DNA from: Escherichia phage vB_EcoM_HZ_ZJUN4
Direction: 5' to 3' (one strand)
DNA: 64,000 nucleotides
Sequence record: PP216085
The position numbers and the translations under genes are program-made. Under the pieces are notes generated by a model. That model saw only the letters and a program-made list of their open reading frames with translations. It searched no databases and was not told where the DNA came from. This document shows, one piece after another, positions 52,908 to 55,935 of the stretch. Position 1 is the first letter of the stretch. Each line of letters opens with the position of its first letter.

Positions 52908-53237
52908 ATGATTTATTGTATGAATATCGGTGATTCCGACATAAAAGAGATTAAACTGCACGGAAATCATCACGCTAATATTGTGTACTGCAATAAATTT
53001 GAGTTTGGTCACGAAAAACTTGGGTTTCTTTACTGTAATGATGTTATAGTCATGGATAAAAAGGAACTCGATGATCTCGACCATGAGTCTTTAGATGAAA
53101 ATGATCGAATTTATTATGGCACTCTTAAAGTATATAACGCTTATCTCAGCGGTAAAAAGGAAAGTCTAAATGCAGAAAACGAATCCGGGTTTACAGAGAC
53201 TATTTCAGATTCCGACATTTACCCTATCGAACAATGA
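52908..53237 (+). CDS. hypothetical protein
   Basis: 109 aa, RBS AAGGAAAAATT; overlaps next ORF. Confidence 0.4.
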   Translation: MIYCMNIGDSDIKEIKLHGNHHANIVYCNKFEFGHEKLGFLYCNDVIVMDKKELDDLDHESLDENDRIYYGTLKVYNAYLSGKKESLNAENESGFTETISDSDIYPIEQ

Positions 53238-53727
53238 TTTGACTAGTGAAATGAAGGTCAAAATTGCTGATACAGCAAGATACTCTTTAAAACAAAATCC
53301 AAATCAGGATAAAGCAGAAGTCATCGAAAGATGCCGTATCGCTGTGTATGCAGAGTTTTTTGTAGCAGATTGGTTAAGCGGGTATGTTAACAAAGGCCAA
53401 GAGGATGTTAATGACCCGTATACATACGCATGGGATGTATTGGCGCATCCAAGATACTGCGGGCTTCGTGTAGAAGTTAAGACACATCAAACTGACTCAC
53501 GTTGGATTTCTGTAACAACAGGATGCAGCGGAGAGTATCCATACGGTTCTGGAATAAATCTAGGGCCCATTCTGAATCATCAGGTCGCTGACTGTATAAT
53601 TATATTCAACACTAAAGAAATTCACCCAGGTGTCATCCAGTACACTCCGAAGTTCATCGGTGATAGAGAAGACCTTCGTAAAGTTGTAAGAAAAAGCAAC
53701 TACAACGGATGGTATCTTTCCATTTAA
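53170..53727 (+). CDS. denB: probable endonuclease IV DenB
   Basis: 185 aa ORF between rIIB and ndd; assignment mainly by synteny and length. Confidence 0.55.
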   Translation: MQKTNPGLQRLFQIPTFTLSNNDLTSEMKVKIADTARYSLKQNPNQDKAEVIERCRIAVYAEFFVADWLSGYVNKGQEDVNDPYTYAWDVLAHPRYCGLRVEVKTHQTDSRWISVTTGCSGEYPYGSGINLGPILNHQVADCIIIFNTKEIHPGVIQYTPKFIGDREDLRKVVRKSNYNGWYLSI

Positions 53728-53743
53728 AAAATTTCACAAAACG

Positions 53744-53773
53744 GTTTACATACCACAAGGACTGTGGTACTAT
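53744..53773 (+). promoter_or_regulatory. T4-type early promoter (copy B of repeated promoter-leader cassette)
   Basis: GTTTACATA...CTGTGGTACTAT followed by leader identical to copy A. Confidence 0.6.
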
Positions 53774-53807
53774 ACAACTATCAACTGATGCGGATTTGGA
53801 GAATAAA

Positions 53808-54014
53808 ATGTTTACTACAGCTGAATTAAAACGAGCAAAAGCTAAGAAAGGGCAAGGAAAATATAAAGCTGAATTAGTTAAAGAACTTCAGTTTGCTGAG
53901 GCTGAATTGAATTCAATGATTATTCAAAATGCTCCAGAAACTGAAATTGCTCTTAAACGTATTGCGAATAAGTGTCTTCGTGATGCAATTGTCGATCTTT
54001 TAGCGGATTATTGA
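53808..54014 (+). CDS. hypothetical protein
   Basis: Track ORF 53709 trimmed to ATG after GGAGAATAAA; 68 aa. Confidence 0.45.
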   Translation: MFTTAELKRAKAKKGQGKYKAELVKELQFAEAELNSMIIQNAPETEIALKRIANKCLRDAIVDLLADY

Positions 54015-54283
54015 ATAAAATGAAATTTAAATTTTATTACGCTAAACATAAAATAACTGATGAGTTTGTGTCAGTTGAATATTCTAGCGATGATGAAGGT
54101 ATGATTTATACTCGCTTGGGACTATCGCACTGGGAGTCTGATACGCCTTATTTTTCAACTCCCGAAGAAATTACACGCTTAGTTAATGGTCATATGAATG
54201 ACCACTGGAATGTAATTCTTTCAGATAGTCTTAAAGCGGCTATTAATAGTAATGAAATGAAAATCGCTGAGATTGAACTATGA
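54011..54283 (+). CDS. hypothetical protein
   Basis: Track ORF, 90 aa, ATGA overlap. Confidence 0.45.
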   Translation: MNKMKFKFYYAKHKITDEFVSVEYSSDDEGMIYTRLGLSHWESDTPYFSTPEEITRLVNGHMNDHWNVILSDSLKAAINSNEMKIAEIEL

Positions 54284-54468
54284 GTTCATTATGGTGGTGT
54301 TTTGTTTGGTTAATTAGTATTCCATTGATTTGTTTAGTATTTACTTTTGTGATGAGGTTATTATGAAAATTTTGAATTCTGTACTTATTGCTTGTGCATG
54401 GTGGGTTGCGCAAGTTTCAGCAGTAGTAGTTGGTATTCACATTTATTACGAATATTTTTAAAAAAGTT

Positions 54469-54498
54469 ATTTACAAGACTGTTCCTCTGTGGTATTAT
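54469..54498 (+). promoter_or_regulatory. T4-type early promoter
   Basis: ATTTACAAG...TGTGGTATTAT. Confidence 0.55.
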
Positions 54499-54526
54499 TA
54501 CCCTATCAACTACGGAGGAACAGAAA

Positions 54527-54640
54527 ATGAAAAAGATTGTTAAAGCTATATGGAATGTAGTTATAATACTAATAGTTTTGAGTATATTCCCAATCGTTTT
54601 AATGATTGATGTATTAAACGCTTACTTTGGATTTATGTGA
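54527..54640 (+). CDS. small hydrophobic peptide (37 aa)
   Basis: ATG after CGGAGGAACAGAAA; MKKIVKAIWNVVIILIVLSIFPIVLMIDVLNAYFGFM. Confidence 0.4.
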   Translation: MKKIVKAIWNVVIILIVLSIFPIVLMIDVLNAYFGFM

Positions 54641-54647
54641 GGAAAAT

Positions 54648-54845
54648 ATGAAGCGTAAACGTAGTGCTTTTACATTTATGGAATGGTTTTTCGATAATAT
54701 TTTTCCAGCTTTATTCATTTTCATGCTGATTTTTGCCTTAGGTTCAGTTGTAGTTGGAATCTATTTGATGGCAGTTGTCGGAATGGACATTCATCAAAAT
54801 GGCTTAAAATCTGTAGTTGAAACAATTTGGAATGGTGTAAAATAA
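54648..54845 (+). CDS. small membrane protein (65 aa)
   Basis: Track ORF 54627 trimmed to ATG after GAGGAAAAT. Confidence 0.45.
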   Translation: MKRKRSAFTFMEWFFDNIFPALFIFMLIFALGSVVVGIYLMAVVGMDIHQNGLKSVVETIWNGVK

Positions 54846-54960
54846 TGAATTTACTAAGCATTTGGTTTTATATTCTTATGTTTTACATTGGTGCAAATTT
54901 CCCATACTGGATGGGATGGTCAACAACTGCATTTGGATTTTATACTCCCTGAGGTGAATT

Positions 54961-55176
54961 ATGAAAATTTTTAAAGATGTAAAGGTCGGTGAAATTTTTT
55001 GCTTAGATAATGGTGATCAGTTAATTCGTATTTCACCTCTTAAGAGCACTAGCGAGAAAATGACAGTTAACGCTACTTTAGCAAATAACAGTAATGAACG
55101 TTTCTGTATTGAAAATGATACTGAAACTTATACTGTAGAAGAATTCTGGGAATTAAGTGTCGACTGCGACGATTAA
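54961..55176 (+). CDS. hypothetical protein
   Basis: 71 aa, RBS TGAGGTGAATT. Confidence 0.5.
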   Translation: MKIFKDVKVGEIFCLDNGDQLIRISPLKSTSEKMTVNATLANNSNERFCIENDTETYTVEEFWELSVDCDD

Positions 55177-55236
55177 TTTATCGGCCGTGTGTATTCATGC
55201 GGCCTTGGAGTAGAAAATAATTTAGAGGAAATTAAT

Positions 55237-55692
55237 ATGAAATACATGACTGTTACTGATCTGAATAATGCAGGCGCAACTGTTATTGGTACAATTAAGG
55301 GCGGTGAATGGGTTTTTGGAACTCCGCATAAAGACATTTTGTCTAACCCTGGATTTTACTTTTTAGTAAGCAAATTTGGTGGTCCATTTGATAGTCCATG
55401 TGTATCTGCACGATTTTATGTAGGTAATCAGCGTTCTAAACAAGGATTTAGCGCAGTTCTAAGTCATATTCGCCAGCGTCGGTCTCAGCTTGCGCGTACT
55501 ATTGCAAATAACAATGTTCCATACACGGTATTTTATCTACCTGCTTCTAAGATGAAACCTCTGACGACGGGATTTGGAAAAGGTCAGTTAGCTTTAGCGT
55601 TTACTCGTAATCATCATTCTGAGTATCAAACACTTGAAGAAATGAACCGTATGTTGGCTGATAACTTTAAATTTGTTTTGCAGGCATATTAA
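55237..55692 (+). CDS. ndd: nucleoid disruption protein Ndd
   Basis: Track ORF trimmed to 151 aa [25 protein letters not shown]...; matches recalled T4 Ndd. Confidence 0.8.
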
Positions 55693-55772
55693 TGAGTAAT
55701 TTCCATAACGAACATGTAATGCAGTTCTATCGTAACAATCTTAAAACTAAAGGCGTCTTCGGACGCCAGTGA
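55692..55772 (+). CDS. stp: Stp peptide (activator of host PrrC anticodon nuclease)
   Basis: Not in ORF track; 26 aa [26 protein letters not shown]; start overlaps ndd stop (TAATG); matches recalled T4 Stp. Confidence 0.75.
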
Positions 55773-55779
55773 GGAAAAT

Positions 55780-55935
55780 ATGAATATTGCAAAACTATTA
55801 GGAGTTATTTCATTTATTTGTTGGATAGTAGCATGTGTTTTAACTATCTGTATCGATGCTAGCAGTGTGTTTTCGCAAGCTTTAGCTCAGGGTATGTGTG
55901 CATATTTAACATTTGCGTTGTTATCTAATGATTAA
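55780..55935 (+). CDS. ac: probable Ac (acriflavine sensitivity) membrane protein
   Basis: Not in ORF track; 51 aa hydrophobic peptide between stp and 52, RBS GTGAGGAAAAT. Confidence 0.55.
   Translation: MNIAKLLGVISFICWIVACVLTICIDASSVFSQALAQGMCAYLTFALLSND

Follow-up and report, generated by a model that had tools for sequence, protein, structure and literature searches.

Five short open reading frames (ORFs) on the + strand at positions 54280-54952 of the window, the 64-kb stretch (64,000 nucleotides) of Escherichia phage vB_EcoM_HZ_ZJUN4 DNA that we analyzed (PP216085), encode predicted products of 28, 32, 37, 65 and 35 aa. We are highly confident that these ORFs are the coding genes known in T4 as ndd.6, ndd.5, ndd.4, ndd.3 together with ndd.2a, and ndd.2. 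We propose, with moderate confidence, that they are conserved early genes of the T-even phages for dispensable accessory microproteins that would each cross the inner membrane once. Because the ORFs are part of the textbook T4 annotation, finding them here is largely a rediscovery.

Identity and coding status of the five small genes

The DNA of this locus is 97% identical to Tequatrovirus genomes, whose annotation agrees, and the locus is the denB-ndd early region of a Tequatrovirus. The five ORFs are flanked by an ORF ending at 54283 and a 71-aa gene at 54961, and the set lies on one strand between denB and ndd.1/ndd. The T4 genes ndd.6 to ndd.2 (NP_049886 to NP_049881) are 94-97% identical to the window at the DNA level, with the same order and the same flanks from denB to ndd; unlike T4, the window has two further ORFs, of 68 and 87 aa, that separate denB from ndd.6. 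Farther downstream on the + strand, the ORF list and the annotation of T4 and its relatives place ndd.1 (54961-55176), ndd (55237-55692), stp (55692-55772; 26 aa) and ac (55780-55935; a 51-aa membrane protein). No paralogues of the five ORFs were found elsewhere within the 64-kb window. The sequence-only reading that drew attention to this cluster had reported five tiny ORFs of 28-65 aa; all are present and the sequences it quoted match, and it did not recognize them as the annotated T4 genes ndd.2 to ndd.6. The preceding ORF, which it gave as 90 aa, also exists, but has that length only if counted from a TTG and is 87 aa from the ATG at 54020.

Each of the five proteins matched a PHROG family. 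The product of ndd.6 (54280-54366, + strand, 28 aa) matched phrog_8851 over residues 1-28 of 28 (E=4.8e-16), differs from T4 NP_049886 by one or two substitutions, and has one hydrophobic helix with a conserved W-C...I-P-x-I-C; pN/pS for the gene is 0.13, and homologues were found in 25 of 46 loci. The product of ndd.5 (54363-54461, + strand, 32 aa) matched phrog_5011 over residues 1-32 of 32 (E=3.6e-26) and has no differences from the T4 protein (NP_049885). It has one hydrophobic helix and an aromatic C-terminus, YYEYF; its gene (pN/pS 0.07) is present in Tequatrovirus loci only. The ndd.4 protein (54527-54640, + strand, 37 aa; T4 NP_049884) matched phrog_3098 over residues 1-37 of 37 (E=3.9e-21). 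Its N-terminus is basic and amphipathic (MKKIVKAIWN), its predicted transmembrane helix carries a conserved IFP...ID, and its C-terminus is aromatic. Homologues of ndd.4 were found in 41 of the 46 loci, with pN/pS of 0.08-0.23 in other clades. The 65-aa protein (54648-54845, + strand), which corresponds to T4 'ndd.3' plus 'ndd.2a', is a DUF7248 protein: residues 5-63 aligned with profile positions 3-57 of 58 of PF23906 at 73.4 bits (cutoff 27), and the protein also matched phrog_2401 (E=6e-30). Its N-terminus is basic (MKRKR) and is followed by a long hydrophobic helix, and its C-terminal part has the conserved motif Q-x-G-L-K-S-V-V-E-x-I-W-N-G; pN/pS is 0.10 and there are homologues in 28 loci. 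Finally, the ndd.2 protein (54845-54952, + strand, 35 aa; T4 NP_049881) matched phrog_4135 (E=2.8e-23) and is uncharged and aromatic-rich, with a conserved G-x-N-x-P-Y-W-(M/L)-G-W (pN/pS 0.12; homologues in 24 loci).

Three of the genes have an SD sequence (GAGG for ndd.5, GGAGG at 54514-54518 for ndd.4, and GAGG for the 65-aa gene), rather than the two with good ribosome-binding sites that had been counted in the sequence-only reading. The ATG of ndd.6 overlaps the stop codon of orf87 (ATGA at 54280), the ATG of ndd.5 overlaps the ndd.6 stop, and the ATG of ndd.2 overlaps the stop of the 65-aa gene (TAATG at 54845). The ndd.6 and ndd.2 starts within stop/start overlaps suggest that these two genes would be translated by coupling to the preceding gene, and ndd.5, ndd.4 and the 65-aa gene would each be translated from their own SD.

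For the five ORFs, pN/pS was 0.07-0.13 gene by gene and 0.14 overall in the annotated frame compared with ~1.3 in the other two frames, and variable sites were distributed 17:12:46 by codon position. Within five other clades, pN/pS was 0.08-0.43. Even phages with an Ndd of only 46-66% identity have four of the five families upstream of ndd, in unchanged order, and across genera the protein is conserved but the DNA is not. In every family, a characteristic polar or aromatic motif that lies beyond the hydrophobic core or at its edge is conserved; Pro, Asp, Asn, Gly and Trp feature in these motifs. The sequence-only reading had listed a lack of cross-phage conservation among the results that would refute it; the frames are conserved across the T-even phages and beyond. 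These patterns indicate that the five ORFs are real genes under protein-level purifying selection. It is extremely improbable that they are untranslated chance ORFs in AT-rich intergenic DNA: short frames are common here (36 ORFs of at least 20 aa in 2.3 kb) and no peptides from the five were detected in the T4 proteome, but frame-specific selection and the conservation of protein but not DNA across clades and genera effectively rule this out, and the ORFs have SDs or coupled starts and belong to curated families.

The subset of families varied between phages, from none to all five, and their order was fixed (46 loci). From these mixed subsets in a fixed order, we infer that the genes are modules inherited independently. 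In Pfam and NCBIfam, DUF7248 was the sole match, and the other four proteins had none even at E up to 10. For the 65-aa protein, a word-indexed search for homologues turned up close relatives only. An exhaustive HMMER search with ndd.4 against 1.84 billion representatives returned 6 clusters, all of the same family (53-97% identity), with no sign of non-phage relatives, and a PDB sequence search gave no matches.

Within Tequatrovirus, the DNA of ndd.4 varies unusually little, with at least 99% identity in 312 of 494 phage records, an observation that may be new. The coding RNA was not unusually structured (z=-1.07), so RNA structure does not explain the invariance. Deep nucleotide-level constraint on ndd.4 was rejected because synonymous divergence is normal in other clades. 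For the same reason we prefer a Tequatrovirus-specific sweep or homogenization, which is an unproven candidate.

The T4 reference and alleles of the 65-aa gene

The 65-aa gene is intact in the window, but the T4 reference divides it into two ORFs, ndd.3 and ndd.2a. A single missing base, found only in X75802, AF158101 and NC_000866, accounts for the division, and the gene is intact in re-sequenced T4. T4 'ndd.3' appears to be an artifact of this missing reference base, the real gene encoding 65 aa, and this observation may be new. The ndd.4 product is 37 aa here compared with 42 aa as annotated in T4, in which a C-to-T change makes an upstream ATG inside the ndd.4 SD. The annotation can be corrected, with ndd.3 and ndd.2a combined into one 65-aa gene and ndd.4 set to 37 aa.

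Two laboratory lineages of T2 carry different nonsense mutations in the 65-aa gene (Gly45-stop and Ser33-stop), alleles that may not have been noted before. Over the 50 kb compared, there were 8 differences between these lineages, three of which were in this gene (two nonsense, one missense). The recurrent loss of the gene in T2 suggests that it has a measurable effect on fitness. We considered and rejected the nonsense allele of the T2 'ymfE mutant' as a selected escape, because the allele is common to four other records (three T2, one SV76).

Promoters and a stem-loop at the ndd.4 ribosome-binding site

A consensus scan identified a T4-type early promoter at 53745-53773 (+ strand; TTTACA-17-TACTAT with TG). 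The record of phage SA21RB marks this site as a T4 early promoter, and it probably drives orf68, orf87, ndd.6 and ndd.5. The best-scoring site (10 of 12 consensus matches) was at 54470-54498 (+ strand), with a -35 TTTACA at 54470-54475, a -10 TATTAT at 54493-54498, a spacer of 17 and an extended TG. This is the early promoter that the sequence-only reading had pointed out, and it too is annotated as a T4-type early promoter in the close relative SA21RB. By these consensus matches, the five genes are downstream of two sigma-70-type early promoters. The promoter element is also copied elsewhere in T4, for example at nrdC.9/nrdC.8, with annotated -35 and -10 signals. In T4, the RNAs of ndd.2 to ndd.6 are classed as 'early' (PMC9697503, supplement 4), and the proteins were not detected in the proteome time course (PMC9697503). 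This absence is weak evidence, because tiny hydrophobic peptides easily escape mass spectrometry.

RNA folding revealed a 15-bp stem-loop spanning the second promoter (54479-54523, + strand). The 5' arm (54479-54493) is in the promoter spacer and the 3' arm (54509-54523) includes the ndd.4 SD. The fold has a predicted energy of -23.4 kcal/mol (z=-4.9), and none of 200 shuffled sequences was equally stable. In other clades, the same stem-loop design was found upstream of the ndd.4 homologues, with compensatory changes on both sides at at least 7 pair positions. Covariation was determined from per-sequence folds anchored on the SD; RNAalifold gave no structure for a MAFFT alignment of the promoter hairpins, in which the arms are misaligned.

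We propose that pairing in the stem-loop would mask the ndd.4 SD in read-through transcripts. Transcripts from the adjacent promoter would lack the 5' arm and have an exposed SD, and only on these would the SD be open, because the 5' arm is upstream of their start site. A covarying stem-loop that lies across a promoter and masks the SD in read-through RNA may be a new arrangement. Start-site-dependent translation in T4 was reportedly described by McPheeters et al. in 1986, as for the lysozyme gene e, soc and gene 49. In those cases, too, a hairpin occludes the SD on long transcripts from upstream but not on transcripts that start inside the hairpin; they use late promoters inside the hairpin, whereas ndd.4 would use an early promoter.

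Alternatively, the stem-loop could have one of the roles proposed for PeSL elements (PMC4122927), in recombination, in termination or in the stability of the RNA. The element here has the defining features of a PeSL, namely a T4-type early promoter (TTTAC..N..TAyTAT) with a stem-loop, repeated in the genome. The PeSL elements of T4-like phages (Arbiol 2010; Comeau 2014, PMC4122927) likewise combine an early promoter and a stem-loop, are repeated in the genome and are tied to cassette exchange, and ndd.4/.5 is named in PMC4122927 as an exchanged cassette. The element here differs in that the 3' arm is the ndd.4 ribosome-binding site, the 5' arm is upstream of the transcription start, and the pairing covaries across clades. 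A translational-masking reading of PeSL was not found in the passages of PMC4122927 that were consulted.

Possible functions of the predicted membrane microproteins

The Kyte-Doolittle mean over 19 residues was 2.2-3.1 for four of the proteins. The hydrophobic segment of ndd.2 was borderline (mean of 1.43, with 34% aromatic residues), and so the earlier claim of one predicted transmembrane helix per ORF holds for four and is borderline for the 35-aa ORF. AlphaFold2, run on the single sequence, predicted one long helix for the 65-aa protein (pLDDT 90). In Shigella phage Sf25 there is a natural in-frame ndd.4::DUF7248 fusion that keeps one helix and the C-terminal motif, which is consistent with a common topology for ndd.4 and DUF7248 proteins. 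By the positive-inside rule, ndd.5, ndd.4 and the 65-aa protein are predicted to be N-in/C-out. Based on these properties, each product is predicted to be a microprotein that spans the host inner membrane once.

Bacteria have small membrane-protein regulators, including AcrZ, MgrB, MgtS, PmrR, SgrT, KdpF and CydX. Proteins of the AcrZ/MgrB type are likewise ~30-65 aa long, with a single transmembrane helix and short conserved flanks; the products described here are predicted single-helix proteins under ~70 aa, as such small proteins are, with ndd.2 borderline. There is no homology between these regulators and ndd.2 to ndd.6, and the likeness is one of analogy only. The T4 proteins Ac (51 aa) and Stp (26 aa) are also tiny, non-essential and early, and their genes lie on the same strand, a few hundred bases farther downstream. 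The AcrAB-TolC pump has been suggested as the target of Ac, which is predicted to cross the membrane once (preprint bioRxiv 10.1101/2025.06.30.662393), and the T4 annotation gives a host protein complex as the target of Stp. Neither is similar in sequence to ndd.2 to ndd.6, and both have genetic phenotypes (acridine sensitivity and prr exclusion), whereas none is reported for ndd.2 to ndd.6.

The products would most likely serve as accessory factors that the phage can do without and that work independently of one another. In the first minutes of infection, each would use its conserved juxtamembrane motif to bind one particular component of the host envelope, much as has been proposed for Ac. 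The suggestion in the sequence-only reading that they are modulators of host membrane complexes is plausible; the mechanism in which each is a specific modulator of a host membrane component is one that we advance only tentatively. It has indirect support from the motifs conserved outside the hydrophobic core and from the action on AcrAB-TolC proposed for Ac. In the literature searched, no interaction partner, phenotype or localization was reported for ndd.2 to ndd.6. Searches for ndd.2a or DUF7248 gave no literature matches, and searches for the ndd.N names were obscured by papers on neurodevelopmental disorders.

The T4 deletion saΔ9 removes ndd.2 to ndd.6 and is viable, and it loses the T4-induced shift in phospholipid synthesis (PMC6071114). 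This deletion of ~3.4 kb, to which the lipid phenotype maps, also removes denB, ndd, stp, ac and 52.1 (PMC6071114). The phospholipid effect of T4, a stimulation of phosphatidylglycerol, has been known since 1968 and is mapped only to saΔ9. The shift is a candidate phenotype of ndd.2 to ndd.6. It is a long shot that at least one of the microproteins, DUF7248 being the best candidate, is the T4 determinant that reprograms host phospholipid synthesis via phosphatidylglycerol stimulation, acting on an inner-membrane component of lipid synthesis or envelope stress through its C-terminal, predicted periplasmic motif. If so, the T2 nonsense alleles would mean that DUF7248 activity is costly on standard laboratory hosts.

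It is unlikely that the products are generic membrane-active peptides, comparable to type I toxins, to holins or antiholins, or to superinfection-exclusion proteins, that perturb or reseal the inner membrane without a specific protein partner; for example, they might aid recovery after DNA injection or block secondary infection as Imm and Sp do. Such a role would suit very short, very hydrophobic single helices with early RNAs, similar in size and hydrophobicity to the type I toxin peptides TisB, Hok, Ibs and Ldr. T4 encodes other small membrane proteins with roles of this kind (Imm, Sp, rI and T), and mild toxicity of the product would be in keeping with the loss-of-function alleles of laboratory T2 stocks. 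However, the motif conserved in each family is a different one and specific residues are under purifying selection, and generic pore-formers allow far more variation. In PHROG, Pfam and NCBIfam, none of the five proteins matched a toxin or holin family, and no similarity to Imm or Sp was found. In contrast to type I toxins, ndd.2 to ndd.6 have conserved, family-specific polar motifs and there is no antisense RNA gene or known RNA family in the region, in which Rfam gave only a sub-threshold chance match to potC (E=0.68).

A role as counter-defense factors, or triggers, for membrane-associated host immunity, with the patchy distribution resulting from host-specific arms races, is similarly improbable. 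The genes belong to the same early transcription unit as stp and ac, rIIB and denB adjoin, and the neighboring 26-aa Stp activates the PrrC anticodon nuclease. Gene content is modular and mixed and matched between phages, in a hyperplastic region with PeSL-mediated cassette exchange for which PMC4122927 gives ndd.4/.5 as an example. Escape from sensing could also account for the independent nonsense alleles of two T2 stocks, but these alleles are common to stocks propagated on the standard hosts B and K-12, in which no system of this kind has been implicated. This support is circumstantial, no defense system is known to interact with ndd.2 to ndd.6, and the near-universal, strongly conserved ndd.4 (41 of 46 loci) is unlike a fast-evolving arms-race gene.

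We consider it still less probable that the proteins are subunits of one phage membrane complex with Ndd, for example anchoring the disrupted nucleoid at the inner membrane: the synteny immediately upstream of ndd is tight and widely conserved and Ndd is described in the T4 record as a protein that binds host DNA to the membrane, but the families are not co-inherited, and two loci (L034 and L035) have ndd and none of the five. Cloned ndd alone reportedly disrupts the nucleoid, according to work by Bouet and colleagues in the 1990s.

For T4 biology, ndd.2 to ndd.6 constitute a short, defined list of candidates for the old saΔ9 phospholipid phenotype. Masking of an SD by a promoter-embedded hairpin may also be how PeSL cassettes are expressed in general. 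Frame-specific selection together with conservation across genera justifies experiments on these phage products that proteomics has missed.

The ndd.6 to ndd.2 genes and their early promoters

We identified window positions 53170-55935 as the early region denB-ndd-stp-ac of a Tequatrovirus, a genus of T4-like phages. When 2 kb around the ORF cluster served as the query, 525 phage records matched (top identity 97.6%), and these records annotate denB, ndd.6 to ndd.1, and ndd. By gene-table comparison with UFV-AREG1, ime09 and T4, the ORFs, all on the + strand, are ndd.6 (54280-54366, 28 aa), ndd.5 (54363-54461, 32 aa), ndd.4 (54527-54640, 37 aa), a single 65-aa ORF corresponding to ndd.3 plus ndd.2a (54648-54845), and ndd.2 (54845-54952, 35 aa). 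Each ORF had a full-length PHROG family match, and the 65-aa protein matched Pfam DUF7248 (73.4 bits vs a cutoff of 27). The cluster of five tiny ORFs described in a sequence-only reading was therefore correctly placed, as judged from the gene tables, PHROG and Pfam. The identity and coding status of these ORFs are near-certain, and they are genes already known as annotation.

The genes ndd.1, ndd, stp and ac lie 3' of ndd.2 on the same strand. The tiny-gene theme reaches past the reported span and continues downstream of ndd with stp (55692-55772), encoding a 26-aa peptide, and ac (55780-55935), encoding a 51-aa membrane protein. Between denB and ndd.6 are ORFs of 68 aa (53808-54014, phrog_4535) and 87 aa (54020-54283, phrog_2390, RB69ORF270c-like). 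Both are missing in the T4 reference and found in many relatives, and the 87-aa family reaches more distant clades too. A GC-rich stem-loop between ndd.1 and ndd (55183-55204; GGCCG, 12 nt, CGGCC) is annotated as a terminator in phage SA21RB; no U-run follows the stem.

There are two T4-type early promoters on the + strand, at 53745-53773 and 54470-54498. Both are annotated likewise in SA21RB, and the second, the top-scoring site, is the early promoter that had been proposed within the cluster. A suitably spaced GAGG or GGAGG precedes ndd.5, ndd.4 and the 65-aa gene. The ndd.6 start lies in an ATGA overlap with the preceding stop and the ndd.2 start in a TAATG overlap. In a T4 time-course omics study (PMC9697503, supplement 4), RNAs of ndd.2, ndd.2a, ndd.3, ndd.4, ndd.5 and ndd.6 were classed as early and their proteins were without a class, that is, undetected; ndd and ndd.1 were early in both RNA and protein.

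Many GenBank phage records (e.g. ime09, EcNP1, T4_3t3) name ndd.4, ndd.1 and even ndd "naphthalene 1,2-dioxygenase"; "outer membrane protein" is the name given to ndd.5, ndd.6 and ndd.2, and "periplasmic protein" that given to the 65-aa product. These labels are unsupported by the sequences and look like propagated annotation errors.

Coding status and natural lesions

In an alignment of the window and 14 further Tequatrovirus sequences, variable sites numbered 17:12:46 at codon positions 1, 2 and 3, and pooled pN/pS was 0.14 in the annotated frame vs about 1.3 in the other two frames. For single genes in the annotated frame, pN/pS was 0.13 (ndd.6), 0.07 (ndd.5), 0.10 (the 65-aa gene) and 0.12 (ndd.2). 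Within-clade pN/pS was 0.08-0.43 in five other clades. An IMG/VR scan with Ndd yielded 36 loci with an Ndd sharing 46-95% identity with that of the window. Profiles were searched against the ORFs lying upstream of ndd at 46 loci in total, and homologues were found for ndd.4 at 41, the 65-aa family at 28, ndd.6 at 25 and ndd.2 at 24; ndd.5 was restricted to the 15 Tequatrovirus sequences. Outside Tequatrovirus, DNA-level similarity was recognisable for ndd.4 alone (~72% identity), indicating that conservation is at the protein level. Conservation of the reading frames across phages, named as a check in the sequence-only reading, is thus present. Frame-specific pN/pS, codon-position bias and cross-clade protein conservation effectively exclude chance ORFs. 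No paralogues of the five ORFs were found elsewhere in the window.

The T4 ndd.3 gene appears to be an artefact, with ndd.3 and ndd.2a forming one 65-aa gene. In the T4 reference (NC_000866 166432-166628) this gene is split by the lack of one G after ATGAA, a lesion confined to X75802, AF158101 and NC_000866. The matching span is 302 nt, vs 301 nt in the T4 query, in a further eleven records (nine re-sequenced T4, RB55 and RB59); OL964735, the one inspected directly, has the 65-aa frame intact.

The 65-aa gene is disrupted in all eight T2-type records of the collection (seven T2 and SV76; among them NC_054931, PV958097, AP018813 and MH751506), at a site homologous to window 54744-54782. Five carry Gly45-stop, and three, of a Japanese lineage, carry Ser33-stop plus Ala42Glu. 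Representatives of the two lineages have only 8 differences over 50 kb, 3 of them inside a 36-nt stretch of the 65-aa gene; 198 nt would be expected to contain 0.03 (P about 5e-6; about 1e-3 when corrected for how many windows of this kind there are). This clustering suggests repeated selection for loss of the gene in laboratory T2 stocks and, indirectly, points to its expression and to an effect on fitness. Elsewhere, phage a51 lacks the ndd.2 start owing to a 12-nt deletion where the 65-aa gene meets ndd.2, and in another compared locus (L005) ndd.6 is lengthened to 83 aa by a 2-nt insertion close to its end.

A promoter-spanning stem-loop and DNA invariance at ndd.4

A 15-bp stem-loop (54479-54523) lies across the promoter at 54470-54498. 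Its 5' arm (54479-54493) is within the promoter spacer, upstream of the expected transcription start, its loop holds the -10 hexamer and that start, and its 3' arm (54509-54523) includes the ndd.4 Shine-Dalgarno (SD) sequence. The predicted RNA fold has an energy of -23.4 kcal/mol (z=-4.9). The same arrangement of promoter and stem-loop is found ahead of ndd.4 homologues from other clades, where the stem sequence differs and pairing is retained, with both-sided changes at 7 or more positions around the SD (G-C to A-T, T-A to G-C and C-G to T-A among them). Within Tequatrovirus, three stem positions vary, alternating only between G-C and G-U.

In read-through transcripts from upstream, the stem would mask the ndd.4 SD; in transcripts begun at the proximal promoter, the SD would be exposed. 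From the conservation of the stem-loop with compensatory changes across T4-like clades, we infer that translation of ndd.4 may depend on the transcription start site. The same masking logic is known for T4 lysozyme and soc, which ndd.4 would resemble in having its SD masked or exposed. The element also matches the PeSL (promoter-early stem-loop) cassettes of Comeau et al. (PMC4122927), who tie such cassettes to gene shuffling and give ndd.4/.5 as an example.

The T4 annotation of ndd.4 (42 aa, MEEQKMKK...; positions 237-365 of our T4 locus, L003, in ndd orientation) starts at an ATG that arises from a C-to-T substitution within the SD (window 54511). The conserved ATG, used in all other phages compared, gives 37 aa, and the annotated T4 start is probably over-extended.

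We found zero synonymous variation in ndd.4 across the 15 aligned Tequatrovirus sequences. In 312 of 494 records its DNA matched the window with an identity of 99% or more; the corresponding counts were 2 of 475 (ndd.2) and 11 of 491 (ndd.5). The gene and its leader form a low-diversity island (~54503-54652) within Tequatrovirus. The ndd.4 RNA has no unusual structure that would account for the island, and in other clades ndd.4 shows normal synonymous divergence and no such island. For these reasons, a Tequatrovirus-specific sweep or homogenisation is a likelier candidate cause than a nucleotide-level function.

Protein features and possible function

Each ORF had been read as encoding a single predicted transmembrane helix. 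Four of the proteins fit this (19-residue Kyte-Doolittle means of 2.2-3.1); ndd.2 is borderline (1.43), with no charge and 34% aromatic residues. Basic N-terminal residues in ndd.5 (K2), ndd.4 (KK..K) and the 65-aa protein (KRKR) predict an N-in/C-out topology. AlphaFold2 with single-sequence input modelled the 65-aa protein as a single long helix (pLDDT 90); no related solved structure was found. Shigella phage Sf25 gp120 is a natural fusion protein in which ndd.4 residues 1-32 run in frame into the C-terminal half of the DUF7248 protein, consistent with a shared topology of the two. Precomputed annotation gives gp120 a second Pfam family, PF26889, which had no match in the Pfam copy searched.

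The literature searched assigns no function to ndd.2-ndd.6. In the T4 deletion mutant saΔ9, which lacks 52.1, ac, stp, ndd, ndd.1-ndd.6 and denB, the burst is still about half that of wild type, and infection no longer stimulates the synthesis of phospholipids, in particular phosphatidylglycerol (Kutter et al., PMC6071114). Several products of this region are predicted membrane proteins according to the same authors, and Ac, encoded just downstream, has been proposed to act on the AcrAB-TolC pump (2025 preprint, bioRxiv 10.1101/2025.06.30.662393). Over and above hydrophobicity, families keep motifs of their own: W-C..I-P-x-I-C in ndd.6; K-A-I-W-N ... I-F-P-x-V-x-M-I-D and an aromatic C-terminus in ndd.4; C-terminal Q-x-G-L-K-S-V-V-E-x-I-W-N-G in the 65-aa protein; and G-x-N-x-P-Y-W-(M/L)-G-W in ndd.2. 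Because of the saΔ9 data, the Ac proposal and these motifs, the best-supported mechanism is, tentatively, that the proteins may serve as accessory factors that specifically modulate components of the host envelope. The earlier suggestion that they might modulate host membrane complexes is a reasonable one. Generic membrane-active peptides seem unlikely, and we give similarly little weight to counter-defence factors or triggers. Gene order is fixed and content varies, with phages carrying anywhere between zero and five of these families, which argues for independent modules rather than a single obligate complex; a membrane complex linked to Ndd is very improbable.

The ORF cluster is real, and its genes had been annotated before. 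What is new amounts to corrections and leads, not to a novel type of system.
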